From positions 1-59,860 of IMG/VR virus record IMGVR_UViG_3300037760_000140: a stretch of 59,860 bases of DNA, one strand, 5' to 3'. Numbering within the stretch: the stretch's first letter is position 1; every line of letters starts with the position of its first letter. The notes under the pieces were generated by a model, which had not been told where the DNA came from, did not search any database, and was given only the letters and a program-made list of their open reading frames with translations. The DNA comes from a virus (Duplodnaviria > Caudoviricetes). The position numbers were made by a program, and so were the translations under genes. Shown piece after piece: positions 278 to 57,016 of the stretch.

Positions 278-657
278 GCAACGGCCCCGCACGGCACATC
301 GACAGCGCCGTTCAGGCGATCCGCCAGTTCAACCACGCCAGCCGCTCCGCCGGGCCTGAGTGGCAACGCCCCGGCGACACCTACAGCGCGATCGGCGCCC
401 TGTCGCAGCTGGCCGGGATGCTGCCGCAGGCCCTGGAACAGTCCATCCGCCCGGTCACCCGGACCCACGAGGACGGCCGCCTCGCCATCGACGGCGACGG
501 CGACCCGCAGGCCGCGGTGCGGTACCTCCGGGACGCACTGGCCGCAGCCGTCAAAGCCGCCGCCGACGTCGAATTCGCGGTCGGCCAGATGCACATCGAG
601 ACCAGCCCCATGAGCTACGACACCAGCGGCCCGTCCGAGTTCGAGGACGACGCGTGA
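274..657 (+). CDS. hypothetical protein (127 aa)
   Basis: Coupled at both ends; high GC3; protein-like composition. Confidence 0.75.
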   Translation: MSNGPARHIDSAVQAIRQFNHASRSAGPEWQRPGDTYSAIGALSQLAGMLPQALEQSIRPVTRTHEDGRLAIDGDGDPQAAVRYLRDALAAAVKAAADVEFAVGQMHIETSPMSYDTSGPSEFEDDA

Positions 658-827
658 ACTGGCTCCGCCGCGAGGCCACCAGCCGACTCGCCAGGTACGG
701 CTCCCTCGCCTGCCTCGGCGGGGCACTGGTGGCCGGGCACGCCGGGATCGCGATCGGCGCCGGGACGGTCGCGCTCACCTGCTGGACCATCCGGCCCTCG
801 CGCGCACGCCATCGCCGCACCCGCTGA
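654..827 (+). CDS. small membrane protein
   Basis: GTGA overlap; hydrophobic LACLGGALVAGHAGIAIGAGTVAL. Confidence 0.6.
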   Translation: MNWLRREATSRLARYGSLACLGGALVAGHAGIAIGAGTVALTCWTIRPSRARHRRTR

Positions 828-850
828 CACCCGACAGGAGACCCGCCACC

Positions 851-2104
851 GTGGACGCCCTCACCGCCATGGCATCCGCCATCCGCAACGCAGCGGCCGA
901 CAACACCGCCGTGGCGGCCGTCATCGCCCTCGCCATCGCCGCCATCATCTGCACCGCCACCTGGGGCGCCTGGCGAACCGCCAGCCGCGCCGCCCGCAGC
1001 GCCCGACACGCCCTCGACGGCACCCCCGCGTCGGTCGTCGTGGCAGCCGTGGCGGCCGTCGCCTGCACCGCCTACACCGCCGACACCTCCTGGCGGTTCG
1101 CCGCCCAGTACCTCGACATGGGCAGCACCGCCGAACGGGCCGCCATGTTCGCCGCCGCCGAACTCGCCCTGTTCGCCTGCGCACTCCTGGCCCGCCAGCA
1201 CATCCGCCAGACCGCCACCGACGACCAGCCCGGCAGGGCCGGCACCCCCGGACTCCTCGTCTGGGTCATCACCGGCGTCCAGGTGATCCCCGCGTTCGCC
1301 GTCTCCGGCACCGTCGGCGGCATCGTCCGCGCGTTTGTCGGCCCGTTCATGGCCGCGCTGCTGTGGCACCTCGCCATGGGCATCGAGATCCGCCACGCCC
1401 GGCCCGGAGCGCTCCGCTACGGCCTGCTCGCCACCATCGCCCGCGAACTCCGCGAACGCCTGCTGTCCTGGCTCGGCCTGGCCACCAGGGACCGCAGCGC
1501 CGAGCAGATCACCCGCGACCGGTGGACCGTGCGCGCCGTCACCTACGCCGCGCGCCTCGCCGATACCCCGCTCGGGGGAGGGTGGTGGACCACCCGCCGC
1601 CGGAGCAGGCTCGCCAGTCGTCTGTCCGTCGCCGTCGGCCGCGCCCAGGTCGGCGCCGAACCGGAGCAGCGCCGGATGCTGCTGGAGCTGCTGGCGGCCC
1701 GACGCCACGCCGCCACCCTCGCCACCGTCACCCTGCCATCCCCCTGGCAGGCCGACACGGCGCCCGACAGCGCCGCCGCCGAACTTCCCCCGGCCGACAG
1801 CGGCACCGGCGACACCCGCCACGACGCCCCGCCACCGCCCGACACCGCCGACAGCAGCGACGAGCAGCGCCCGCCAGAGCCGCCACAGGCACCCGCCACC
1901 TACGACAGCCCCGTCGATCGCGCGATCAGGCCGCTCTACGACACCGGCTGTCGCCCGACAACCGGACAGATGACGGCCGCCATGTCGGCCGCCGGCCTCA
2001 AGCCCGTCTCGTCCACCGCCCGCCAGAGCCGACAGCGCATCGAGCGCACCGAACCGCACCTCGCCGCGCTGCCGTCCGCCCTCCACGCCCGTACCGGGAG
2101 CTGA
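851..2104 (+). CDS. spdB: SpdB-like plasmid spread membrane protein with C-terminal extension (possible HTH)
   Basis: Segments CTAYTADTSWRFAA, AMFAAAELALFA, LVWVITGVQVIPA, VRAFVGP.MAALLWH, LAARRHA...LPSPW match my recollection of pIJ101 SpdB; several TM helices; RBS aggag. Confidence 0.8.
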   Translation: MDALTAMASAIRNAAADNTAVAAVIALAIAAIICTATWGAWRTASRAARSARHALDGTPASVVVAAVAAVACTAYTADTSWRFAAQYLDMGSTAERAAMFAAAELALFACALLARQHIRQTATDDQPGRAGTPGLLVWVITGVQVIPAFAVSGTVGGIVRAFVGPFMAALLWHLAMGIEIRHARPGALRYGLLATIARELRERLLSWLGLATRDRSAEQITRDRWTVRAVTYAARLADTPLGGGWWTTRRRSRLASRLSVAVGRAQVGAEPEQRRMLLELLAARRHAATLATVTLPSPWQADTAPDSAAAELPPADSGTGDTRHDAPPPPDTADSSDEQRPPEPPQAPATYDSPVDRAIRPLYDTGCRPTTGQMTAAMSAAGLKPVSSTARQSRQRIERTEPHLAALPSALHARTGS

Positions 2105-2110
2105 CCCGCC

Positions 2111-2326
2111 ATGCGAACCCTCATCCGTCTGGCTCGTCGGTGGCGGCGACAGCGTCGCCCTGACGGCCCGGTCACCGTCACCCGACTGCCCGGCCCCGAG
2201 CAGGCCCCGGCCGCCCCGCCGGCCTACCGCGTCCGACCCGGACTGCCGGTCCTGCCGCCCGACATCACCCGCCAGGACGAGCAGCACATCCGCTGCCGCC
2301 TCCGCCACCTCACCGGAGAGGAGTAG
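2111..2326 (+). CDS. hypothetical protein in spd-like operon
   Basis: Fills gap between neighbours; its 3' end carries the RBS of the next gene. Confidence 0.55.
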   Translation: MRTLIRLARRWRRQRRPDGPVTVTRLPGPEQAPAAPPAYRVRPGLPVLPPDITRQDEQHIRCRLRHLTGEE

Positions 2327-2329
2327 ACC

Positions 2330-3040
2330 GTGGCCGACGACTGGTTCGACCGATTCGTAGACCAGGACTGGGCAGGCGAGACCCAGACCCGAGACCGCCG
2401 AGACCGAGACCCCGGCGGGAGGATCCCCGCCCCCGGCGAGACCATCGACCTCCGAGACCTCCGAAGCGAGACCGGGCCGCGCGAGACCGAGACCCGAGAC
2501 CAGGCAGCGGAGCGCACCGAGACCGACCCGGTAGACCTCGGCAAGACCGCCAAGACCGCCAAGACCGACGGCGAGACCACCGAGACCGAGACCGACAGCA
2601 GCCCGGCCGAAGACGAGACCGAGCAAGACCAGCAGAGCGCCTACGACGCCATCGCCGACGCCCTCGTCGCAGCAGCCGGCCGGCTGCCCACCGCCGAAGA
2701 CGCCGCCGAAGCCCGGCGCGACATCGTCCGCAGCAAGCGCGCCCGCGCCACCCTCTACAACACCTCGGCCGCAGCCGCCGGACTCCTGCCCGCGGCGGCC
2801 GGAGCCGACTGGACCGCGCCCGGAACGGTCACCGGCTGGCTCGACAACATCGCCGCCGACGCCTCCATCGGCGCAGCGCTCATCCTCGGCACCGCCCTGG
2901 CCGGGATCGTCTGGGCCGTCTGGGACCGACGAACCCGCGCCCTGCCCCCCTGGGCCGCCTGGGCGTGCCGAATCCCCCTCGCGTCCGTGGTCGCCGGCGT
3001 CCTGCTGTGGGCGCCCGCCTGGCCCGCACTCAACCTCTGA
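2330..3040 (+). CDS. membrane protein with N-terminal ET/RD/KT repeat region
   Basis: RBS gaggag; C-terminal TM segments; repeats encoded by a CGAGACC array. Confidence 0.75.
   Translation: MADDWFDRFVDQDWAGETQTRDRRDRDPGGRIPAPGETIDLRDLRSETGPRETETRDQAAERTETDPVDLGKTAKTAKTDGETTETETDSSPAEDETEQDQQSAYDAIADALVAAAGRLPTAEDAAEARRDIVRSKRARATLYNTSAAAAGLLPAAAGADWTAPGTVTGWLDNIAADASIGAALILGTALAGIVWAVWDRRTRALPPWAAWACRIPLASVVAGVLLWAPAWPALNL
2377..2630 (+). repeat. oriented CGAGACC array (15 copies counted) plus AAGACC/TAGACC/CAGACC variants
   Basis: Counted directly in the sequence. Confidence 0.85.
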
Positions 3041-3056
3041 CCAGCAAGGACACGCC

Positions 3057-3533
3057 ATGTTCGCAGCACCCGCCACCACTCCCGCCGCCTGGTGGGACGA
3101 CGCCGAATACGCCCCCGGCGTCATGGACGGCGAATACATGGGCAGCCTCGGCGCCGGTGGCCTCGCCGTCGTGATGCTCCTCCTCCTCATCCTCGGCACC
3201 CGCGAGAAGGCCAAGCACCGGCTGAAGCCCATGGCCGCCCTGATCTGGGGCTTCGTCGCCATGACCGTCTGGATCGGAGCCGGCGGCATATGGTCCTACC
3301 CCTCCGACGTCCTGCGCGACGCTCTCGCACAGGCCACAGCCCTCGGAGTCGTCGGGAACATCGGCGCCGGCGCCATCGCGCTGGTCACGCTCGGCATCGT
3401 GTGGTTCGTCGATCTCAAGCCCCGCGCCGAAGCCATCATGGGCATGGTCATGGGCGTGACCTGGGCCGCCGCAGGCGGCATCTGGGGCGTGCCCGTCCTG
3501 ATCGTCGCTCAGATCACCGGCGGCCTCGCATGA
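3057..3533 (+). CDS. multi-pass membrane protein
   Basis: RBS aagga; about 4 Gly-rich hydrophobic helices. Confidence 0.8.
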   Translation: MFAAPATTPAAWWDDAEYAPGVMDGEYMGSLGAGGLAVVMLLLLILGTREKAKHRLKPMAALIWGFVAMTVWIGAGGIWSYPSDVLRDALAQATALGVVGNIGAGAIALVTLGIVWFVDLKPRAEAIMGMVMGVTWAAAGGIWGVPVLIVAQITGGLA

Positions 3534-4249
3534 CCGAGCGCCCGACCTGGGTCACCGCGGCCACCGACGCCATCGAGCAGTTCCTCACCGGGGCGCACCG
3601 CACCGCCACTTGGTGCTGGCACGCGGGACACGTCTACCTGCGGACCTGCCCCGTTAAGGGCTGCCGCTGGTACTGGCGGACCATCGGATACGGCACCTGG
3701 AGCACGGCCGCCGCCTTTCCGCTCGCGGTCGGCGGAGTGCTGCTGGTGTCGGCCGGTCCGCTCGCCTGGGGCATCGCCGGGGCCACCTTGGTCGCGGTCT
3801 GCTGGATCGCCGGAGAAGACGAAGACGAGGAGGAGGAACCAGAGGCGGAGGAGGAGCCTGCCCCGGCGGCCCCGATCGACCCCCTGCTTGCGTTCACCGC
3901 GCAGCTCATCGGCAATGCCCGCGGCATCCACCTCACCGCGCTCCTCACCGCTCTCCACCGCGCCGGCGTAGACCCCCGCTTCGACGCCACCGAGCTGCGC
4001 ACCGTGCTGGCCGAACAGGGGGTTGCCTGGAGGCCATCCGTGCGCGCCCCGAAAGGGGCTGTCCCGGGCGCGGCCGAAAGGGTCGCTCAGGGGGTGCACC
4101 GGGAGGATCTGGAGGCCGTGATCGGCCCCTTCCCTGTCCCCTCTTCCGAGCCCCTTCCAGGTCCTGTAGCTACCGCCACTACAAGCGGCGTGACCTGCGA
4201 TGTAGCGGATCTGACTACGGCCGTAGCTACGGGACGTAGCAGCGCCTGA
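3530..4249 (+). CDS. membrane protein with acidic linker and putative C-terminal winged-helix domain
   Basis: ATGA coupling; 2 TM helices, EDEDEEEE linker, then LRTVLAEQGV...QGVHREDL. Confidence 0.7.
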   Translation: MTERPTWVTAATDAIEQFLTGAHRTATWCWHAGHVYLRTCPVKGCRWYWRTIGYGTWSTAAAFPLAVGGVLLVSAGPLAWGIAGATLVAVCWIAGEDEDEEEEPEAEEEPAPAAPIDPLLAFTAQLIGNARGIHLTALLTALHRAGVDPRFDATELRTVLAEQGVAWRPSVRAPKGAVPGAAERVAQGVHREDLEAVIGPFPVPSSEPLPGPVATATTSGVTCDVADLTTAVATGRSSA

Positions 4250-4335
4250 CGGCTGCCGGTGCGCCCCTGCCGGGGGCGTGCCGGGAGCCGGCCAGACCGG
4301 ATAGACCGGACCCACCATCTACCCCTGGAGGACCC

Positions 4336-4569
4336 ATGACCGATACGCCCACCGAGGGCGCGCCGATCGACCGTGACGCAGCCGCGCGAGTCCACTACGT
4401 CGACCGGCGTGTCCGCCGCCTGGCAGAGGCCCGCTGGAGGCTCACCACCGGCGGTTCGCACGCGGACTGGCTCCAACTCGGCAAGGACAACCCCGAGGCC
4501 CTGATCCAGGAAGGGCGGGACTGGCTGCGTGCCGCCGTCGCGGCCGGGCTGCTATCGCCACCCAGCTGA
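4336..4569 (+). CDS. hypothetical protein
   Basis: RBS ggagga. Confidence 0.7.
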   Translation: MTDTPTEGAPIDRDAAARVHYVDRRVRRLAEARWRLTTGGSHADWLQLGKDNPEALIQEGRDWLRAAVAAGLLSPPS

Positions 4570-4652
4570 CCCACCACCAGCCCGGGGCGGCCTCGCCTGC
4601 CAGCAGCCGCCGCCCCGGGCCCCATCCCGACGCATCGAGACAGGACCCGATC

Positions 4653-4781
4653 ATGCTCCGCAAGCTGATGCCCATCAAGCCCCGCACCAAGACCGAACCG
4701 CCCGCCGGGAAGTGGGGCAGCACCTACGACGCCGAGCGCGGCGGATGGGTATCCGACAAGCCCGCCAAGCCGAAGCGCTGA
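4653..4781 (+). CDS. small basic protein (MLRKLMPIKPRTKTEPPAGKWGSTY...)
   Basis: Read by hand; RBS agga; below the ORF-track size cutoff. Confidence 0.5.
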   Translation: MLRKLMPIKPRTKTEPPAGKWGSTYDAERGGWVSDKPAKPKR

Positions 4782-4838
4782 CCGACCGGGGCCCGCACCG
4801 TGCTGGTGCGGGCCCCCCGACCGCGAGAGGATGACGGC

Positions 4839-5255
4839 ATGACCGACGAGATCGCCGCGTTCGTGCGGGCGCGGCTGGACGAGTGGGAGGCGGAGGCGCG
4901 AGCCACCGGCGACACCCACTGGAATGCGATGACGGAGGAAACCCCTGACGGGGAGAACATCTTCTACACCGTCGAAACGACAGGGCCAGGTCGGCGCGCC
5001 GTTGCTGAGGCGCCAGGCACGCGAGAGCGTGATTACGCCCTCGTTGAACACATCGCCGCCCACGACCCCGCGCGGGTCCTGCGGGAGGTGGCGGCGCTGC
5101 GGGTCGTGGTGGATCAGCACACCGGACGGCACGGGAAGTACGTGTGCCACGAATGCCTGCAAGACCTGTCCGCCCCGAACTCCTGCCACACCCTCCGCCA
5201 CCTCGCCGCGATCTGGTCGGACCACCCGGAGTACCGGGCGGAGTGGCGGCCGTAG
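4839..5255 (+). CDS. DUF6221-like protein
   Basis: AFVRARLDE...HIAAHDPARVLREV...DHPEYRAEWRP pattern. Confidence 0.7.
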   Translation: MTDEIAAFVRARLDEWEAEARATGDTHWNAMTEETPDGENIFYTVETTGPGRRAVAEAPGTRERDYALVEHIAAHDPARVLREVAALRVVVDQHTGRHGKYVCHECLQDLSAPNSCHTLRHLAAIWSDHPEYRAEWRP

Positions 5256-7919: not shown

Positions 7920-8336
7920 ATGCCGAGCAGGCCACCCCGGGTATGCGCAGGATGCCGGGGCACAGTACCCCCCGGCGAGAGGTGCCCCCGGTGCACCCCC
8001 GGGGACAGGCAAGCCACCGACCGGGCGCGCGGCAACAGCCACCAACGCGGCTACGGTCGCAGACACCGGGGCAGGTTCAGGGGCGCAGTGCTCGCCCGCG
8101 ATCCCGTGTGCACCTGCGACCAGGAGTGCCGGCGGGGTGCCCTGGTGTTGCACGGACCTGGCGACTGCGACGTGCTGGCAACGGTGGCCGACCACCACCC
8201 AAAGACCCGCCGGGAGCTAGTGGCGGGGGGCCTGGACCCTGACGACGCGCAGCACGGACGAGGACTGTGCAAGGGATGCCACGACAGGCACACTGCACGG
8301 TCGTCGCCTGGTGGATGGGCGGACCGTCGGGGGTAG
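7920..8336 (+). CDS. HNH endonuclease (packaging-associated)
   Basis: CxxC motifs, ATVADHH, LCKGCHDRHT; lies just upstream of TerS. Confidence 0.85.
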   Translation: MPSRPPRVCAGCRGTVPPGERCPRCTPGDRQATDRARGNSHQRGYGRRHRGRFRGAVLARDPVCTCDQECRRGALVLHGPGDCDVLATVADHHPKTRRELVAGGLDPDDAQHGRGLCKGCHDRHTARSSPGGWADRRG

Positions 8337-8430
8337 GGGCGTCAGCATCACCATATCGGACATACCGGGCGACCGCCCAGGTGGTGAGCGAGATCGCGCC
8401 GCCCGTTTTGCCCTTTTGTGACAGACCGTG
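8337..8430. other. candidate cos/packaging site
   Basis: Intergenic between HNH and TerS, the usual cos position in HNH-terminase phages; exact site not identifiable. Confidence 0.4.
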
Positions 8431-8442
8431 ACGGAGGTGACT

Positions 8443-8901
8443 ATGGGTGTTCGTGGCCCCCTCAAGATCCCTAAGCACCTTCAGGCCGTGCCCGATCCGG
8501 GCGCCGCTGCAGGGACCATGGCGGAGAAGGTCGCCCCGTCCGCCCCGCCCCGTCCGCCAGGCTTCCCCGAAGGCGACCGGGAGATGGTCGAGCTGTGGGA
8601 CGCGATCGTCCCCGAGCTGGACCGCGCCGGACTACTCACCCGGGCTGACGGGGCGACGGTGGAGCTGGCCATCCGCCACTTCCTCGCCGCGCGCAAGGCG
8701 GGCGACGCGCTCCAGGCCGGCGACGTCGTGCTGACCGATGCGGCGCACGGCGGGACGGCGAAGAAGAACCCGGCCGGTGCTGAGATGCGTAGCCAGTCGC
8801 AGCTGTTCCTGGAGTACGCCAAGCAGCTCGGGATGTCGTTCGCGGCGCGAGCGCGGATCCCGGCGAAGGATGAGGCGACGGAGGCGAACCCCTTCGCATG
8901 A
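8443..8901 (+). CDS. terS: terminase small subunit (P27 family)
   Basis: KKNPA...LGMSFAARARI motif; position; RBS ggagg. Confidence 0.85.
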   Translation: MGVRGPLKIPKHLQAVPDPGAAAGTMAEKVAPSAPPRPPGFPEGDREMVELWDAIVPELDRAGLLTRADGATVELAIRHFLAARKAGDALQAGDVVLTDAAHGGTAKKNPAGAEMRSQSQLFLEYAKQLGMSFAARARIPAKDEATEANPFA

Positions 8902-8915
8902 GGGGGTGATCCGTC

Positions 8916-10658
8916 GTGGCGGTGAAGGTGCCCGGGAAGCGGGTGCTCGACAAGCTCAAGCTCAGCCCCGAGGTGGCGCACTACCTGCTGTCGCGAGGGT
9001 ATGAGCTGCCGACCTGTCCGCCGCAGCACAAGACGCCGGAGCCCCGCGAGGTGCCGGGCGCATACTTTGATCCGCGCCGCGTGGACCGGGTAGTTGACGC
9101 GTTCGCGCGGCTGCGGCATACGAAGGGCAAATGGGCAGGACGCCCCATAGCGCTGCGGCCGTGGCAGATCGCGTACCTGATCGGCCCGACCTACGGGTGG
9201 GTGCGGCCGACGGCGGACGGCCGGACGGCGCGGATCATCCAGACGCAGTACCTGGACATCCCGCGCAAGAACGCGAAGACGACGGTCGGCGGCGGGCAGT
9301 GCGTATATCTGACGTGCGCCGACGGCGAGGAGGGCGCGGAGGTCTACGCGCTGGCGACGCGGAAGGACCAGGCGCGTCTCTGTTTCGATCCGGTGCGGCT
9401 GCTGGCGACGAAGGCCCCGGACCTGAAGGGGCACGTCAAGCCCCTCCGGGACAAGATCCAGCACCCTAGGTCCGGCAGCTTCTTCTCGGTGATGTCGTCG
9501 GCCGGCGACGCGATGCACGGCACGAGCCCGCACGCGGCGTTCGTCGACGAGCTGCACCTGCACAAGACCCGGGATCTGATCGAGGCGGTGGAGACCGGGA
9601 CGGGCGCGCGCGAGCAGCCGCTCATCATGTACGCCACGACGGCGGACTCCGGCGCCCCGTTCTCTCCGTATGCGGAGATCCGGGAGTACTGCGAGAAGCT
9701 GGCCCGCGGCGCACTGGTCGATCCGACTTTCTACGGAGTGGTGTTCGCGGCGGACAAGCAGGACGATCCGTTCGCAGCGGAGACGTGGCTGAAGGCCAAC
9801 CCGGGCCTGGCGGCCGGCGATTCGCCGACGATGGAGAGCATGGAGAAGGCCGCGGCGAAGGCCCGGCAGAACCCCATCGAGCTGGCGTCCTTCCTGCGGC
9901 TGCGACTGGGCATCCGCACGAAGCAGGAGAGCAAGTACATCTCCCTCGCCGAGTGGGACCGGAACGCCGGCATGGTGGACCGCGAGGCTTTGCGGCGCCG
10001 GGAGTGCTACGGCGGCCTGGACTTGGCGGCCACGAGCGACCTGTCGGCGTTCTGCCTGGTGTTTCCGGAGGGGAAGCCCGGCGACGGCACGGAGGGCTAT
10101 CAGGCGCTGTGGCGGCTGTGGACTCCGGAGGCGAACCTGACGCGGCTGCGGGACCGCACGGCTGGGGCGGCGGATGTGTGGGTGCGGCAGGGCTGGCTGA
10201 CGGTCACCGACGGGGACGTCATGGACTACGGCCACATCCGTGAGGCGATCAATGCGGACCGCGACGACTTCAATGTCGTGGAGGTTGCCTACGACCCGTG
10301 GAACTCGACGCAGCTCATCACGGATCTCGTCGGGGACGATGCGCCGATGGTGGAAATGCGGCAGGGCTACCGGTCGATGTCGCCGCCATTGAAGGAGCTG
10401 GCCAGGCTGCTGCGGCAGGGAACGCCGGAGGTGCCTCTGCTGCGGCACGGCGGGAACCCGGCGATGCGCTGGATGATCGACAACCTGACGGTGGCCACCG
10501 ACCCGAGCCTGAATGTGAAGCCGGACAAGAAGACGAGCGCCGACAAGATCGACGGCGTGGTAGCGCTGGTCATGGCGCTGGACCGGGCTCGGAACCGGGC
10601 GCCGGTGCGCAAGAGCGCCTACGAAGACGACGACGAGGACGACCAGATGGTCGGCTGA
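8916..10658 (+). CDS. terL: terminase large subunit
   Basis: Walker A IPRKNAKTT, Walker B FVDELH, nuclease GLDLA, KIDGVVA. Confidence 0.95.
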   Translation: MAVKVPGKRVLDKLKLSPEVAHYLLSRGYELPTCPPQHKTPEPREVPGAYFDPRRVDRVVDAFARLRHTKGKWAGRPIALRPWQIAYLIGPTYGWVRPTADGRTARIIQTQYLDIPRKNAKTTVGGGQCVYLTCADGEEGAEVYALATRKDQARLCFDPVRLLATKAPDLKGHVKPLRDKIQHPRSGSFFSVMSSAGDAMHGTSPHAAFVDELHLHKTRDLIEAVETGTGAREQPLIMYATTADSGAPFSPYAEIREYCEKLARGALVDPTFYGVVFAADKQDDPFAAETWLKANPGLAAGDSPTMESMEKAAAKARQNPIELASFLRLRLGIRTKQESKYISLAEWDRNAGMVDREALRRRECYGGLDLAATSDLSAFCLVFPEGKPGDGTEGYQALWRLWTPEANLTRLRDRTAGAADVWVRQGWLTVTDGDVMDYGHIREAINADRDDFNVVEVAYDPWNSTQLITDLVGDDAPMVEMRQGYRSMSPPLKELARLLRQGTPEVPLLRHGGNPAMRWMIDNLTVATDPSLNVKPDKKTSADKIDGVVALVMALDRARNRAPVRKSAYEDDDEDDQMVG

Positions 10659-10670
10659 CGGGGGTGGGCT

Positions 10671-12728
10671 GTGGGTCTCCGTAGCGGCTGGCTGCGTGTC
10701 AAGCAGTGGTTTCCGTTCGCGCGTCCGTCAGCCCGCACGTGGCAGCGTCCGGGCTGGACGTGGCAGGGCATGGATCAGGCCCTGGTGCTGGGCATGGACC
10801 ATGCGGAGCTGTGGCGGACCCAGCCGCATCTGCGGACCGTGGTCGATTTCGTGGCGCGGAACGTCGCGCAGTTGGGGCTGCACACGTTCGACCGCGTGTC
10901 GGATTCCGACCGGCGACGGGTGACAGGCCAGGGAGTGGCTGCTCTGCTGCGGCGCCCGAATCCGGACGTCACCATGTATGAGCTGGTGTATGCCACGATC
11001 GGCGATCTGGCACTGCACGACCGGGCGTTCTGGTGGGTGCGGCGCGACGCGGACGCGGCCTCTGGCTGGATGATCCGGCAGATCCCCGCTTCGTGGGTGA
11101 CGTCGGGCCAGGACGGCACGGTGTTCGCCGCTGGGAAGTGGATCGTGCAGCCGCCCGCGACCGCCGGTTCGGTGGAGCCGGTCGAGATCCCCGCCGCGCA
11201 GATGATCACCTTCCACGGCTGGAACCCGGACGACCCGAGTACCGGGGCGTCCCCGGTGCGGGCGCTGAAGCTGATCCTGTCGGAGCAGATCCACGCCTAC
11301 ACCTACCGCGAGCAGGTATGGCAGCGGGGCGGGCGGGCGCCGATGGTGATCGAGCGACCGGCGGACGCTCCGGACTGGGGCACGAAGGGCCGCGAGCGAT
11401 TCCGGAAGGACTGGCGCTCGCAGCTCACCGGATCGGGCCCGGAGGCCGGCGGGACGCCGATGCTTGAGGACGGCATGAAGCTCGTCAAGGTCGGCTTCTC
11501 CGCGCGGGAGGACGCCTTCGTCGAGGCGGCCACGCTGTCGTTGACGACGGTGGCCAGCGTGTATCAGGTCAATCCGACGATGGTCGGCGTGCTGGACAAC
11601 GCCAACTACAGCAACGTGCGCGAGTTCCGGCGGGCGCTGTACGGCGACTCGCTCGGGCCGTGGCTGACGATGTTCCAGGACCGCATCAACACCTTCCTCC
11701 TGCCGATGCTGGACGAGCCGGAAGAGCGGTACGTCGAGTTCAACATCGGCGAGAAGCTGCGAGGGTCTCCGGAGGAGCAGGCACAGGCGTTCCAGGCGGC
11801 GGTGGGCCGGCCGTGGATGACCGCCGATGAGGCTCGCGGGCATCAGAACATGCCGGCGCTTGGTGGCGACGCGGAGCAGCTGGTGACGCCGCTGAACGTC
11901 CTGGTGGGCGGGCAGGCGTCGCCGCAGGATTCGGCGCCACCCGGCTCGGGCGCCGGGCCGCCGCGGGAGACGAGCGCGGTGGTGCGGGGAAAAGCGCTGA
12001 AGGCGCTGCGCCGGGCCGACCCGGTGCGGGCTGACGCGTATGAGCGGCAGTACGAGCAGCGCCTTGGCCGCTGGTTCGGGGACTTCGCCGATGCGGTACT
12101 CGCCGGGTATGGCGGGGCGAAGCGCGGCAGGCCGCGCGTCAAGGCTGCTGAGGATTTCGTGGACCGGGAGGCGTGGCAGGAGTCGCTGGCGACGCTGCTG
12201 CTGACACTGGGCCTGGCGACGTCGACGGCTGCGGCCGAGGATCTGCTGGAGCAGATCGGCCTGCCGCCGGAGGACTACAACGCGGACGCGACGGTGGCGT
12301 GGCTGACGGCGATGGCGGCCGGTGTCGCGGAGGGCATCGTCGGGGCGACGCTCGCCGAGGCCGACGAGGCGCTGGCCGATACGGACCGCACCGATGAGGA
12401 CGGCGAGCCGATGTCCGCTGAGGCGCGGCTGGCCGCTGCTCTCGCGGTGGCGGCGGCTGTGCGGGTGCCGGAGATCTCCGCCTCGCAGGTGACATCCATG
12501 TCGGGCTTTGGGCAGACGGAGGCGGCCCGGGGTGCGGGCGGTGAGCCGACGAAGACATGGCGGACTACGTCCAGCAGCCCGCGGCCGGCGCATCAGCGGA
12601 TGGACGGCGAGACGGTCGGCCTCGACGAGAAGTTCTCCAACGGCGCGATGTGGCCGGGTGACTCCCGGCTGGATGACGCGCAGCGCGCTGGATGTAAGTG
12701 CGCAGTCGAGGTCGCAATCGAGTTCTGA
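10671..12728 (+). CDS. HK97-type portal protein fused to a C-terminal MuF-like minor head domain
   Basis: Portal motifs LLRRPNP, NYSNV, WMTADEAR; C-terminus KTWRT...RPAH..MDGETV...GCKC. Confidence 0.9.
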   Translation: MGLRSGWLRVKQWFPFARPSARTWQRPGWTWQGMDQALVLGMDHAELWRTQPHLRTVVDFVARNVAQLGLHTFDRVSDSDRRRVTGQGVAALLRRPNPDVTMYELVYATIGDLALHDRAFWWVRRDADAASGWMIRQIPASWVTSGQDGTVFAAGKWIVQPPATAGSVEPVEIPAAQMITFHGWNPDDPSTGASPVRALKLILSEQIHAYTYREQVWQRGGRAPMVIERPADAPDWGTKGRERFRKDWRSQLTGSGPEAGGTPMLEDGMKLVKVGFSAREDAFVEAATLSLTTVASVYQVNPTMVGVLDNANYSNVREFRRALYGDSLGPWLTMFQDRINTFLLPMLDEPEERYVEFNIGEKLRGSPEEQAQAFQAAVGRPWMTADEARGHQNMPALGGDAEQLVTPLNVLVGGQASPQDSAPPGSGAGPPRETSAVVRGKALKALRRADPVRADAYERQYEQRLGRWFGDFADAVLAGYGGAKRGRPRVKAAEDFVDREAWQESLATLLLTLGLATSTAAAEDLLEQIGLPPEDYNADATVAWLTAMAAGVAEGIVGATLAEADEALADTDRTDEDGEPMSAEARLAAALAVAAAVRVPEISASQVTSMSGFGQTEAARGAGGEPTKTWRTTSSSPRPAHQRMDGETVGLDEKFSNGAMWPGDSRLDDAQRAGCKCAVEVAIEF

Positions 12729-21477: not shown

Positions 21478-22148
21478 CCCAGGCCGCGCTCCGGATCGGG
21501 GTGGTGACCTCCGCGTGGGGCACCTACGGCCGGTGGCTGCCCGAGTGGGTCGCCTCCGTCGCCGCGCAGACCATGCGGCCCGAGCTGGTGACGATCGTGG
21601 ACGCCGGCGTGGACGATATCGGCCCGGCGCGGGAGGCATTGGAAGGCTCCGGGCTGGAGTGGCAGGTCGTCCGCGGCTCCTGCCGAGGGATGGGTGCGGC
21701 CCGGAATCGGGCGGTGGAGGCGACACCGTGCGAGTGGGTGATGCACCTGGACGCCGACGACGTGCTGCTACCGCACTGCCTGGCTGACGTGGCCGCCTTG
21801 ACGCCGCGCGCTGACGTGGTGTCGGTCGGCATGCTGCGTGGCGACCGCGAGGTGCTGTTCCCCCGCGCGTCCTGGCGCCGGGCGCTGGCCGGGCATCATG
21901 TGGCGTTCTCCTGCGCGCCGTTCCGCCGGGGGCTGTGGCAGCGGCGGCCTTACCTGACCGCCAATGACTGGGTGGACAGCGCGCTATGGGTCGGGTTCGC
22001 CCACCTCCGACCACGCTGGGCTGCCACCCGCCGCGCCGGAGCCGTGTACCGGCAGCACGACGACTCGTTCAGCCGCAGCCTCACCCGGGCGGACCGGGCC
22101 GCCGCACTGGTCCAGTTGCAAAACCTGCGCAGGAGGTGGACGCCATGA
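21474..22148 (+). CDS. GT2/GT-A glycosyltransferase
   Basis: SVAAQT, IVDAG, GAARNRAV, HLDADD; TTG start inferred from TTGA overlap. Confidence 0.85.
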   Translation: MTQAALRIGVVTSAWGTYGRWLPEWVASVAAQTMRPELVTIVDAGVDDIGPAREALEGSGLEWQVVRGSCRGMGAARNRAVEATPCEWVMHLDADDVLLPHCLADVAALTPRADVVSVGMLRGDREVLFPRASWRRALAGHHVAFSCAPFRRGLWQRRPYLTANDWVDSALWVGFAHLRPRWAATRRAGAVYRQHDDSFSRSLTRADRAAALVQLQNLRRRWTP

Positions 22149-35644: not shown

Positions 35645-37189
35645 CTACGCCTTCGCCGCCGACGAGTCACCCCTCCGCGCCCGGGGGACCGCAGCGGCGG
35701 CCCGCTCGGCTACCTCCAGGTCCACCTCCTTCAGCAGCGAGGTGTAGGTGTCGGACGCCAGCTTGATCGTGGACTGCCGCAGCACCTCCTTGATGGTGTG
35801 CAGGTCGCCACCGCCGCGGTGGATCAGCGTGGCGGCGCAGTGCCGCAGATCCCGGAGGTTGATCGGCGGCAGGCCCGCCTCAGAGATGAGCTGGCGGAAC
35901 GCGTCGCTGACCGTCTCGGGGTGCAGCCACCCGCCGGTCGGCGTGGTGAACACCTTCCCCGTCTCCGTCCACGCCTCGCCGGCCGCCTCCTTCTCCGCCG
36001 CCTGCCGTTCGCGGTGCTCGCGCAGCACCTGGACGTTGAGAGAGTCCAGGCCGATCGTGCCGGCGCTGCCGTCGGTCTTCGGCGTGTCCTCCACCGGCGT
36101 CCAGCCATCCACCACGATCTCCCGCGCCACCGTGAGGGACTGCGCATCGAGGTCCACGTTCACCCAGTCCTGCCCGACGGCCTCACCGCGGCGCAGGCCG
36201 CGGAACGCCACCAGGTGGAACAGGGCGTAGAGGCGGTGCTCCTCGGCGGCGTCCAGGAACGCGCCGATCTGGGGCGGCGTCCACACCATCACCGCCGACG
36301 GCCTCTCGCCTGTCTGCCGCCATCGCACCACGTGCTCGGTCGTCCACAGCATCGCCTTCGGGCGCTTACCCGAGGCCAGCTCAACGTGCGCGGCCGGGTT
36401 GAACGTGATCATCTGTCGGGCGATCGCGGCGTTCAGCGCGGTCCGGAGCGTCGCCCGGATGCGCTGCTTCGTCGCCGGGCCAGTGGGGCGCCGGTAGGGC
36501 GGCATCGCTTTCAGCTTCGCCCGCTCGGCGGCCAGCCGTTCCCGCTCGTGCGCGGGCGGCCGGGACCGGTGCCCCCACGTCGCGCGGGCCTGCTGCTCGC
36601 GCCGCGCCGCGTTCTCCGCCTCGATCACCTCGTTGGCGTCGTCGATCGCATCGAACATCGCCTGCACCTGGCCGACCCCGAGCCGGTCGAGCCGGTGATG
36701 CCCGAGCGCCGGCTTCAGGTGGACGCGGATGTGGGAGAGGTAGCCGGTCGTCGTCTTCTTCTTCGTCTTCTTCGACGCTGCCCAGGTGTCCAGCCAGTCC
36801 CCGACCAGCGTGGTCCCGTCTAGCGGGACGCCCACGCCGAGGCGGCGCATCACATCGGCCGACTCCGGGATCGGCTCACGGGCGGCCATGAGTCCGACGA
36901 GGAGATCGCCGACCCGGCATCGCTCGCTGTCGTCGGTGGGCAGCTCCAGTATCGCCCGGATGTGGCCGAGGTCGGTCTCCGCCGCGGTCTTGTCGGCGTA
37001 CCCGGTGCGTCTGAAGCGGCGGCGCTTGCCCGCGGCGTCGTCCGGCAGCTCCTGGTGGATCTCGTAGCGGCCGTGCTTCCGCCGCTTCAGGTCGGGGCAC
37101 TGGGCACCCAGGCGTTTGCCGTCCTCGCCGCGGCACTCGCAGCGCCGGGTGATGCCGCCCCCACGGCGCGCCCCGGCCATCAGCCACAC
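35645..37189 (-). CDS. int: tyrosine integrase
   Basis: GLRRGEA, LRDLRH, DTYT; start may be slightly downstream (MAGARR). Confidence 0.93.
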   Translation of the reverse strand: MWLMAGARRGGGITRRCECRGEDGKRLGAQCPDLKRRKHGRYEIHQELPDDAAGKRRRFRRTGYADKTAAETDLGHIRAILELPTDDSERCRVGDLLVGLMAAREPIPESADVMRRLGVGVPLDGTTLVGDWLDTWAASKKTKKKTTTGYLSHIRVHLKPALGHHRLDRLGVGQVQAMFDAIDDANEVIEAENAARREQQARATWGHRSRPPAHERERLAAERAKLKAMPPYRRPTGPATKQRIRATLRTALNAAIARQMITFNPAAHVELASGKRPKAMLWTTEHVVRWRQTGERPSAVMVWTPPQIGAFLDAAEEHRLYALFHLVAFRGLRRGEAVGQDWVNVDLDAQSLTVAREIVVDGWTPVEDTPKTDGSAGTIGLDSLNVQVLREHRERQAAEKEAAGEAWTETGKVFTTPTGGWLHPETVSDAFRQLISEAGLPPINLRDLRHCAATLIHRGGGDLHTIKEVLRQSTIKLASDTYTSLLKEVDLEVAERAAAAVPRARRGDSSAAKA

Positions 37190-47377: not shown

Positions 47378-47739
47378 CCGCCGTGCAGCCCGCCCTCGAC
47401 GGCACCGTGCCCCCACCGCCCCGGCCCCGCTCCGCCGACTACGAGGAGTGGATCACCGCCGTCCGCCCCGCATTCGAGAAGGCCGCCGCCAGCGGCCAGA
47501 CGTTCACCACCTACGCCATAGCCGACCGCCAGCGCCTCCCCGAGCCCCCCGACTCCGCGCACCACTGGGGCCGGCTAATGACCCTGCTGCGCGAGCAGGG
47601 CGTCGTCCGCCGCGCCGGATGGGCCAACAGCGGCCGGCCGACCGCCAACGCCTCCGGGGTCCGCACCTGGCGCGGCACCCGCGCCCACATCGCCGCCTGG
47701 AGCGCCCAGCAGGCCGCCGCCGGGGAGGTGGCAGCGTGA
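47374..47739 (+). CDS. hypothetical protein (possible wHTH)
   Basis: Coupled at both ends. Confidence 0.65.
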   Translation: MTAVQPALDGTVPPPPRPRSADYEEWITAVRPAFEKAAASGQTFTTYAIADRQRLPEPPDSAHHWGRLMTLLREQGVVRRAGWANSGRPTANASGVRTWRGTRAHIAAWSAQQAAAGEVAA

Positions 47740-55722: not shown

Positions 55723-56394
55723 ATGACCGTGCCTCGCCGTTTTCACCTCGACCGCCGAACCGACATCACCGGAGCGTCCGGCACCGGCCGCGTAGCCGAC
55801 GGCGTTCTGTGGCCCGACGGCACCGTCAGCATTCGCTGGCGTGGCGAGCGGCCGTCCGCCGTCCACTGGGACTCGCTGGCAGACGCCGAGCACGTCCACG
55901 GCCACGGCGGACACACCCGCATCGTCTGGGACGACCCCGAGCCCATCAGCTGGGCCAACGCCGACCGCACATGCCGCCACTGCCCCGACGGGCACACCCC
56001 GCCCTCCGGCGGCTCCCAGCCGTGGGGCGCCTATGTCGGACCCGAGCGGGACGGCGACGGGCAGCCCACCACCATCCACGTCGGGCGCAGCGCCGGCGCC
56101 TGTCTTGAACGGGGTTCGTTGGCCCCAGGGGAACGGACCGAGTGGCCCCACCCCCTCGAACGGTCAGACGACCGTTCACCCGGTCCCCAGACGGCCTCTT
56201 CTCGCTGGCTGCGCTTGTGCGCGGACCACCTACCGGCCCGCCGGCCGAACACCTGGCGGAGCCAACACAACTCGGCGGGGTGGGGCCAGAACTTCCCGGC
56301 GGAGACAACCGGCGAGGGCTGGCTGTGCTGCCTGCCCGCCGGCGACGGCCACGACGTCCACGTGCCCTACGTCAGCCGAGAGGACCAGCCGTGA
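55723..56394 (+). CDS. mosaic hypothetical protein
   Basis: RBS ggagg; DITGASGTGRVADGV domain plus duplicated segment. Confidence 0.7.
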   Translation: MTVPRRFHLDRRTDITGASGTGRVADGVLWPDGTVSIRWRGERPSAVHWDSLADAEHVHGHGGHTRIVWDDPEPISWANADRTCRHCPDGHTPPSGGSQPWGAYVGPERDGDGQPTTIHVGRSAGACLERGSLAPGERTEWPHPLERSDDRSPGPQTASSRWLRLCADHLPARRPNTWRSQHNSAGWGQNFPAETTGEGWLCCLPAGDGHDVHVPYVSREDQP

Positions 56395-57016
56395 CCGAGC
56401 CCTGCCCGTTCTGCGAGATCGCCGCCATGCGCGCTCCCGCGAGATTCGTCTACACCTGGCCGGACGCACTCGCGTTCATCCCGCTCAACCCCGTCGTGGA
56501 CGGCCACCTGCTCGTCATCCCACGCAGGCACGTCACGGACTTCGCCGCCGACCCCGAGGTATCTGCGGCGACCATGCGCCGAGCCGCCGAGGCCGCGAGC
56601 GGCATCCGTCCGGACGGACCGATGAACCTGATCACGTCGTGGGGCGCCGAGGCCACGCAGAGCGTGTTCCACCTGCACCTGCACCTCGTGCCCCGCGCCG
56701 AGGGCGACGGCCTCGCACTGCCCTGGTACAGCGGCAAGCGGCGGAAGAGCGGCGTCACGGTCAACGTCACGCCCGCGCCCCCGTCGCCACCCCGCGTCGT
56801 GCCCGTGTACCGCCCCGGCCGCCCCTACTGACCGCCCCCGATCCCGAGATCGAAAGGCACGCTGATGACCGAATTCACCCGGGGGTTCCGCCTCCACCAC
56901 CCCGACGGCCACACCCCGCCCTCCGGCGGCTCCCAGCCGTGGGGCGCCTATGTCGGACCCGAGCGGGACGGCGACGGGCAGCCCACCACCATCCACGTCG
57001 GGCGCAGCGCCGGCGC
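55983..57016 (+). repeat. 117-bp direct repeat (55983-56099 and 56900-57016), one mismatch
   Basis: Aligned by eye; g55992/c56909 is synonymous. Confidence 0.9.
56391..56831 (+). CDS. HIT-family nucleotide hydrolase
   Basis: CPFC, GHLLVIP, QSVFHLHLHLVP. Confidence 0.9.
   Translation: MTEPCPFCEIAAMRAPARFVYTWPDALAFIPLNPVVDGHLLVIPRRHVTDFAADPEVSAATMRRAAEAASGIRPDGPMNLITSWGAEATQSVFHLHLHLVPRAEGDGLALPWYSGKRRKSGVTVNVTPAPPSPPRVVPVYRPGRPY

Follow-up and report, generated by a model that had tools for sequence, protein, structure and literature searches.

Why should a gene for a membrane protein carry the same seven-letter word again and again on one strand, spelled across its codons in two different frames? 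The question is raised by a stretch of some 300 bp in the genome of a temperate actinophage from soil, IMG/VR record IMGVR_UViG_3300037760_000140. The window analysed here is that whole 59.9-kb record, which is classed as 'linear' and has a CheckV completeness of 80%. Within it, the second of four consecutive membrane-protein genes, referred to below as A, B, C and D, hosts an array of the word CGAGACC and of variants that keep its AGACC core, placed in the part of gene B that encodes a disordered linker. The array itself is real and far beyond chance. We consider it somewhat probable (roughly 55%) that it represents a cis-acting, putative docking array, embedded where a plasmid-like membrane module encodes a protein linker and written in a lineage-specific word; that a protein binds the array, which protein reads it, and what such tethering would serve are points that we infer.

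A word array in two reading frames

The exact heptamer CGAGACC is present in 15 copies at 2377-2620, all on the + strand, and the AGACC core in 23 copies at 2323-2630, likewise on the + strand, with no reverse complement of the core in that span by scripted count. The eight variants are GTAGACC (three copies, at 2323, 2357 and 2531), CCAGACC (one, at 2383) and CAAGACC (four, at 2542, 2551, 2560 and 2624). All five that differ from the heptamer by a single mismatch do so at word position 2, and variant heptamers recur in their turn, CAAGACC also in two frames. A preliminary description of this DNA had reported 15 exact copies and about eight variants on one strand, a count confirmed for 2323-2630, together with a reading of the word both as E-T and, through the rare codon CGA, as R-D. 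That reading is confirmed as well: 10 of the 15 exact copies are translated in gene B as c-GAG-ACC (E-T) and 5 as CGA-GAC-c (R-D). One AGACC core (2323) falls between the ribosome-binding site GGAGAGGAG and the GTG start codon; the other 22 lie within the open reading frame (ORF) 2330-3040, 14 of them in the frame xAG-ACC and 8 in xxA-GAC-C.

A plain coding tandem repeat would have a single period, a multiple of three, and a single frame. Here the spacing is irregular, at 6-34 bp among AGACC cores and 6-54 bp from start to start among the 15 exact copies of CGAGACC, two frames are in use, and only short stretches are tandem. The 250-bp core of the array is composed of 26% A, 40% C, 32% G and 2.4% T, and 7-mers cover 136 of its 250 bases.

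The array is the largest local cluster of 5-, 6- and 7-mers in the record. Its 308 bp contain 23 AGACC cores, where the rate outside it in the record would predict 0.64, a nominal figure, since both span and word were picked after the fact. The preliminary description had put forward enrichment of the word against the rest of the genome as a check, and the outcome is divided: the clustering is strong locally, while the window-wide count of CGAGACC on both strands is unremarkable (29, against 19.8 +/- 4.5 in shuffled sequence, with 4 of 100 shuffles reaching 29). Outside the array, 10 copies lie on the + strand and 4 on the - strand. A second and weaker local word, CGACAGC, occurs seven times on the + strand at 1765-2593, from the end of gene A that encodes its linker, through the spacer, into the array; five of these copies read D-S in one frame.

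The synonymous positions of gene B carry the central evidence. When codons were drawn from phage usage with the protein kept, 2.5 copies of CGAGACC were expected against the 15 observed, and none of 5000 simulations reached 15. When the region's own codons were permuted among synonymous positions, 10.8 copies were expected and only 4 of 5000 permutations reached 15, which indicates that rare codons are placed where the word gets completed. In-frame GAC-C follows an A at 8 of its 11 occurrences in the array part, compared with 3 of 102 in 22 other genes (Fisher 4.9e-8), and this A is supplied by the rare codons CGA (five times), GTA (twice) and CAA (once). The two GTA codons encode V10 (in F-V-D-Q-D-W) and V68 (in P-V-D-L-G-K); both lie outside the tandem repeats, in stretches conserved among homologues, where a five-row alignment reads V/I and V/A at these positions. 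Within the array part, CGA makes up 7 of 11 Arg codons, compared with 6.6% of 1447 in other gene calls, ACC all 16 Thr codons, compared with 57.9% elsewhere, and GAC all 17 Asp codons. The synonymous sites of gene B are bent to make the AGACC word, and the pressure acts at the level of DNA; the earlier suggestion that selection concerns DNA rather than protein is supported by these synonymous-site tests.

Four close homologues of gene B were found (P0002-P0005, at 64-68% identity), all of them metagenomic, and among them variation and indels concentrate in the linker. Three of the four are rich in E-T (12, 15 and 13) and R-D (4, 5 and 3), with R-P almost absent. Of the 13 R-D pairs in the homologue linkers, 11 precede P, R, Q, H or L (background 0.26). 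These are residues whose usual codons start in C, and the pattern agrees, indirectly and at the protein level, with what the word in its second frame would predict. No DNA locus for P0002-P0005 could be confirmed among genome, viral and metagenome contigs, and degenerate pattern scans for their DNA gave zero or chance matches (L001-L003, unrelated). Searches by tblastn returned no match for the gene B product (P0001) or the products of genes A and D in phages, nor for P0001 in plasmids, and blastn of positions 800-4300 returned none in phages. The probable source sequencing run yielded one identical contig, and no array variants were seen in that single contig. A profile search collected 41 representatives with the C-terminal membrane domain of gene B in common; in the 17 inspected from this wider family, linkers are acidic or proline-rich and mostly without dipeptide arrays, and one has plain DTGQDTTP tandem repeats.

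Related arrays in viruses and relatives on plasmids

Loci related to the module were found in viral contigs by an alignment of gene D relatives, with 6 of 26 pattern matches confirmed (L010-L015; Table 1). All six have the gene order A-B-C-D followed by a gene for an 82-aa protein, and in each a gene B relative lies directly upstream (best phmmer expect values, E, of 1.6e-16 to 2.6e-9 against family members). The gene A position is held in L015 by a Pfam DUF2637 protein (PF10935, E 1.8e-36) and in L013 by a MUG113 plus winged-helix protein instead. A local word array is present in the linker-coding DNA of gene A, gene B or both in each of the six. The preliminary description had proposed that among homologues the motif should change while the array structure persists; all six loci do keep an array, spelled in words other than CGAGACC, and together with the window the seven loci contain five word families.

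All six arrays nominally exceed both synonymous nulls: the observed count was reached in none of 3000 simulations, save for 7 of 3000 in the permutation for L010. Rare codons take part in these words, such as GCT in 6 of 8 A-Q pairs of L013, or GAT in 17 of 25 D-A pairs of L015 (16 of them GAT-GCG), compared with 3 GAT among 37 Asp codons elsewhere. Inverted copies number 13 in L015, 4 in L013 and 2-3 in both L010 and L014; in the relatives' arrays they fall in three frames and use the rare codons GAT, CAT, GCT and CCT. Inverted copies within coding sequence are something that neither slippage nor frameshift can make. The array stretches of L011 and L012 are 79% identical, with four orthologous sites reading CGAAC in L011 and CGAGC in L012 and further copies of each form common to both, which points to one degenerate word, CGA(A/G)C, in different proportions.

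Across whole records, no local 7-mer cluster exceeds the module array in five of six (G000, G002, G003, G004 and G005), and in G001 the array ranks about fourth, with a local word enrichment of 7- to 63-fold. Some of these records also contain arrays in DNA without an open frame: CTCGTCC in G001 at 62518-62900 (L031; 6 copies on the + strand and 11 on the - strand), GCCTGCC in G004 at 10617-11433 (L032; 16 copies on one strand with a period of about 44-63 bp), and four palindromic GTAGCTAC-type sites in G002 at 21533-21625 (L017). These non-coding arrays are probably regulatory or origin elements.

The wider gene B family is also encoded on 12 small Streptomyces plasmids. On pSNA1, pNKL and NZ_CP108187.1, the gene B relatives stand in an operon that diverges from a GntR/UTRA regulator gene; in pSVH1, according to the published account, the same operon place is that of the TraR-controlled spdB3-spd79-spdB2-orf108-traB transcript (PMC4447253). 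The gene B profile (A1) was matched by hhalign to the product of pSNA1 3186-3914 with a probability of 98.2 and E of 6.3e-14 over the C-terminal 95 columns. In a small database, phmmer gave E of 2.2e-16, 2e-14 and 1.6e-11 for gene B against the three plasmid proteins, and E of 4.9e-26, 1.4e-24 and 4.6e-15 for gene C against the next gene on pSNA1, pNKL and NZ_CP108187.1. Judged by these sequence matches, genes B and C are homologous to genes of the GntR-adjoining operon of small Streptomyces conjugative plasmids, which has the place of the spd genes in pSVH1. On pRVR2 and two further plasmids with gene A relatives, no gene B adjoins them.

Plasmid NZ_CP108187.1 (L005) has repeats of its own, at 9141-9297 and 10240-10513. 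Five to six copies of CCTTCGCC lie just upstream of the annotated start of its DUF2637 gene, probably in an unannotated N-terminal extension, where they occupy two frames and use rare CCT codons; this array may be the plasmid counterpart of the phage arrays. The reverse-complement hexamer, GCGAAG, found 10 times inside the same gene, was set aside as mostly coiled-coil coding, since 9 copies are A-K codons in one frame. The plasmid operon also has a homologue (8259-8507; phmmer E 2e-10 to 6e-7 for three phage copies) of the 82-aa protein, which in all six viral loci is encoded about 20-100 bp after gene D (for example at L011 6455-6703) and has an N-terminal CxxC...H...H motif and a C-terminal membrane helix. 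No counterpart of this protein was found in the window after 4249.

Candidate readers and competing explanations

How might such an array work? The CGAGACC/AGACC copies would be cis-acting docking sites on duplex DNA, embedded where a gene of the Spd-operon-like module encodes the disordered, sequence-tolerant linker of its membrane protein. A sequence-specific DNA-binding domain of the same module would read the word many times over about 300 bp, most likely the three-helix tail of gene A or, alternatively, the winged-helix-like domain of gene D. Reading the array could tie phage DNA to the membrane complex, and such tethering might serve to position, segregate or move that DNA inside the host mycelium.

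Among published cases, SpdA2/sps of plasmid pIJ101 comes nearest. As described in that report, a 12-bp palindrome occurs two to three times inside the spdA coding sequence and is bound by SpdA2, and removal of sps by synonymous recoding had a mild effect on segregational stability (PMC4170104, Thoma et al. 2014). Both cases concern mobile elements of mycelial actinomycetes, and in both a site is placed inside the coding sequence of a spread/stability gene set, where it is seen as a recurring peptide motif (SRDD/E in sps; PMC4170104). Here, 22 of the 23 words lie within ORF 2330-3040, whose homologues are found in the GntR/UTRA-adjoining plasmid operons. Unlike the sps palindrome, which by that account has 2-3 copies and is conserved across many plasmids, the present word is 5-7 bp long, direct, repeated 15-23 times and private to its lineage. 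The palindrome itself has no exact match in the window, and its matches with two mismatches are 2 (15234 and 37255) against 9.49 expected. An SpdA-type reader has 117-163 aa and a conserved N-terminal DNA-binding region, and none of the module proteins has that size and layout.

The array also resembles the clt loci of conjugative Streptomyces plasmids (pSVH1, pJV1, pWTY27 and pIJ101), which are needed in cis for transfer and recognised by TraB/TraA translocases. Published examples are TGACACC in four copies on pWTY27, a 9-bp unit in nine copies on pJV1, and 8-bp repeats on pSVH1 that are read by the TraB winged helix (PMC3583192, PMC4447253). Shared traits are short, element-specific direct-repeat arrays (5-9 bp), a winged-helix-type reader domain (here a candidate) in a membrane-bound protein, and an association with spd genes (PMC4447253, PMC3583192); the 15 copies of CGAGACC, with their 8 variants on the same strand, do form such a direct-repeat array peculiar to the element. 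The differences are in copy number (3-9 in published clt loci, 15-23 here), in setting (pWTY27 clt is reported as mostly non-coding and beside tra, whereas the present array is almost wholly in coding sequence), and in the likely reader, which here would be another protein. No TraB/FtsK gene was found in the record or in five related records. The array is a variant of both sps-in-gene sites and clt arrays and a member of neither. The preliminary description had called it a binding array, clt or centromere-like, for a protein of the module. A putative binding array is what the synonymous tests, the related loci and the spd-operon relatives support; the clt label is not supported, a cognate TraB/FtsK translocase being the defining feature of a clt and none having been found in this record or in the five related ones.

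Cis sites of two further kinds bear comparison, the first being heptad arrays and, more generally, plasmid centromeres. The omega repressor of pSM19035, a soluble ribbon-helix-helix protein, binds cooperatively to many contiguous, non-coding 7-bp heptads, direct or inverted, to form a partition or regulatory complex; the phage array likewise has many 7-bp words, and differs in irregular spacing, coding DNA and membrane-anchored candidate readers. The iterons of the lambda origin lie in the part of gene O that encodes a flexible linker. They too are cis sites in linker-coding DNA; the array differs in its much shorter word and in having neither an AT-rich element nor an initiator-type protein nearby. 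No published description of word arrays in phage spd-like genes was found, in titles and abstract openings for most matches.

Which protein of the module might read the word? The three-helix tail of gene A is modelled at residues 348-399 with a predicted local distance difference test (pLDDT) of about 92. The gene A family is very large in Streptomyces (1796 matches among 8000 scored), some members being source-named DUF2637 or helix-turn-helix, and its C-terminal parts are variable. Window gene A has no Pfam hit at E up to 0.01, gene A tails have none in a lenient Pfam search, and gene A gave no PDB sequence match and nothing meaningful in Foldseek with its model. In gene D, the C-terminal domain (aa 118-198) is modelled as helix-strand-helix-helix-wing-helix with pLDDT 88-93. 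Foldseek with this model returned weak rows (E >= 0.16), many of them winged helices of linker histones, forkhead and MarR-type proteins, with FtsK gamma at E of about 1.2; PADLOC gave only a weak match, over 40 residues within the membrane portion of gene D. Structural leads to DUF3631 and to FtsK-family C-termini were rejected at template modelling (TM) scores of only about 0.3. Locus pairs with a common word also have a like gene A tail (65 of 70 residues identical for L010-L014, 44 of 62 for L011-L012), compared with tail alignments of at most 20 of 47 in the 19 other pairs. Gene D similarity does not track the word, as in L011-L014, which match at 69 of 89 residues despite different words. 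The pairing of word and tail points to the gene A tail as reader, and from these sequence comparisons we infer that the C-terminal tail of gene A (851-2104) is the best candidate, with the winged-helix-like domain of gene D (3530-4249) as the alternative. A search for FtsK_SpoIIIE (PF01580) found no match in the record (80% complete) nor in five related virus records, two of them rated 100% complete, the 7.4-kb record of L014 being left out; without such a domain, a TraB of the element's own is unlikely.

Several observations weigh against a docking array. Plasmid homologues of gene B that were inspected have no comparable array, with four in-frame GAGCCG-based copies in pSNA1 and none in NZ_CP108187.1, and the homologue P0005 has only 2 E-T and 1 R-D. 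The frame AGA-CCx is unused (0 of 22 cores), a sign that coding constraints also act on the array; several E-T positions are conserved among homologues at the protein level, and ET may have a role in the protein. Perfect 9-bp tandems lie within the array, identified by Tandem Repeats Finder as CAAGACCGC (2.9 copies), CCGAGACCG (2 copies) and GACCTCCGA (2 copies). For gene B, the one direct link to the viral loci is hhalign of the gene B profile (A1) against the L012 relative, at a weak probability of 52.9% (E 1.4e-4); otherwise the connection is made by way of intermediate members of the family. Words and spans in the related loci were chosen after looking, which makes their P values nominal. 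No confident fold or family match was obtained for either candidate reader, and the link between word and tail is confounded because the relatives' arrays lie in or beside gene A (in L010, L011, L012 and L015 within the putative reader's own gene) and pass on together with it.

The main and serious rival is an origin by slippage only. The array would then be a coding low-complexity repeat with no cis function, in which GAGACC (E-T) micro-duplications were followed by compensated single-base slips in C runs that gave the R-D frame with its CGA codons, the uniformity of the DNA reflecting recent common descent of the copies. Slippage certainly contributes to array growth: the perfect 9-bp tandems show it to be active in the array and explain part of that growth, and the 6-bp tandems there are also perfect. 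The linker is variable and indel-rich among homologues, the linkers of the wider family are acidic or proline-rich and of low complexity, that with the DTGQDTTP tandems included, and (GAG-ACC)n when frameshifted is exactly (CGA-GAC)n; the empty AGA-CCx frame is, moreover, what a filter on the coding product would lead one to expect. What slippage leaves unexplained is GTA at V10 and V68, in conserved stretches away from the tandems, and CAA before GAC-C. It also needs at least three separate compensated frameshift pairs, it has to accommodate a within-region codon permutation that so rarely reaches the observed count, and it could not have produced the inverted copies of L015, L013, L010 and L014. 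As a full account of the array we find it possible but unlikely.

The remaining alternatives would give the array a function of another kind. A true clt for a double-strand DNA translocase of the TraB/FtsK type, whose gene might lie in the 20% that the record lacks or which might act in trans from the host, a resident plasmid or an integrative element, would suit the single orientation of all 23 copies, which fits a directional motor, the spd-operon homologues of genes B and C on plasmids, and the 5-9 bp direct-repeat arrays of published clt loci (PMC3583192, PMC4447253). Yet the domain search named no such translocase even in related records rated complete, the word tracks the module's own variable tail in relatives, and the mixed-orientation arrays of L015 and L013 are ill-suited to a directional motor; we regard this explanation as improbable. 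Still less can be said for an RNA-level element, in which the 5' third of the mRNA, poor in U and rich in the word, would tune translation or be the target of a protein or small RNA. All copies are indeed on the sense strand, the core is almost devoid of T, and one copy stands in the 5' leader between ribosome-binding site and start codon, but the related arrays have many antisense-oriented copies and no Rfam match was obtained, so that this reading seems very improbable. Least probable is a replication origin of the lambda type, with iterons in the linker-coding part of a gene. Repeated short sites in linker-coding DNA, in four relatives within the gene of the putative reader, recall that arrangement; against it, G+C is 67-79% in every 100-bp window across 1900-3300, which leaves no unwinding element, the flanking genes encode membrane proteins rather than initiators, and a word of 5-7 bp with irregular spacing is not an iteron of 17-22 bp.

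If the array is a docking site, phages of filamentous bacteria would use plasmid-style DNA handling at the membrane, and a directly testable pair of site and reader would be at hand. The locus may also exemplify a second code laid over protein-coding sequence, where a disordered linker tolerates the peptide that the word imposes (E-T or R-D by frame); rare codons and odd dipeptide repeats in such linkers could then flag hidden cis elements, and lineage-specific words could mark specificity groups among uncultured actinophages. A wider and rather doubtful conjecture is that temperate phages of mycelial actinomycetes possess a TraB-less, Spd-like membrane machine together with a private 'address label', a word repeated 10-30 times in linker-coding DNA and read by a variable DUF2637-type tail. 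Such a machine might tether naked phage DNA and move or segregate it between hyphal compartments without capsids, its word-reader pairs diversifying like plasmid incompatibility or partition specificities.

The record and its membrane module

The features of the module and the words of the related loci are collected in Table 1. In the gene B product, an N-terminal DDWFDRxVDQDW motif is followed by the disordered linker, acidic and of ET/RD/KT type (about aa 16-103), then by a helix that is conserved and by a C-terminal pair of membrane helices, and the third-position G+C of its ORF is 0.89, as in a real gene. Genes A, B and D of the window have no match in Pfam, PHROGs or NCBIfam.

Table 1. 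Features of the membrane module in the window, and word arrays in the six related viral loci
Feature	Positions	Strand	Word	Copies (+ / -)	Description
Gene A	851..2104	+			417 aa; DUF2637-like multi-helix membrane domain, Pro-rich disordered linker, C-terminal three-helix tail
Possible small ORF	2111..2326	+			71 aa, between genes A and B; TAG stop overlaps first GTAGACC; not established as a gene
Word array	2323..2630	+	CGAGACC	23 / 0	15 CGAGACC and 8 NNAGACC variants; the count given is of AGACC cores
Gene B (P0001)	2330..3040	+			236 aa, GTG start; hosts the array
Gene C	3057..3533	+			158 aa, membrane protein; homologues directly after the gene B homologue on plasmids
Gene D	3530..4249	+			239 aa; two long N-terminal helices, acidic linker, C-terminal winged-helix-like domain
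L010			CGGCAC		Present in both gene A (2 inverted copies) and gene B
L011			CGAAC	16 / 1	360 bp; frames 8/7/1
L012			CGAGCA	11 / 0	Frames 7/3/1
L013			GGCTCA	7 / 4	Together a near-palindrome, GGCT(C/G)AGCC
L014			CGGCAC		Layout as L010
L015			GGATGC(G)	16 / 13	1.5 kb across genes A and B; counts are of the 6-mer GGATGC, 25 of 29 being the full 7-mer

The 71-aa ORF between genes A and B has no family match; in the plasmid operons, the corresponding position ahead of the gene B homologue is occupied by a small gene of 52-55 aa. No sigma-70-like promoter or intrinsic terminator was found at 600-4900. Elsewhere in the record, genes for the small and large terminase, portal, protease, capsid and tape-measure proteins lie at 8.4-20.5 kb, and others encode an HNH nuclease, CI-like repressors, WhiB and a tyrosine integrase (35645-37189, - strand). 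The sole tRNA call of the record, made by ARAGORN, is an unusually long 94-nt tRNA-Ala (GGC) at 47433-47526 on the - strand, with no Rfam match at gathering scores; the record encodes no tRNA-Arg able to read CGA. The early region contains a 127-nt direct repeat at 55973-56099 and 56890-57016, with 97% identity between the two copies, which lie 917 bp apart.

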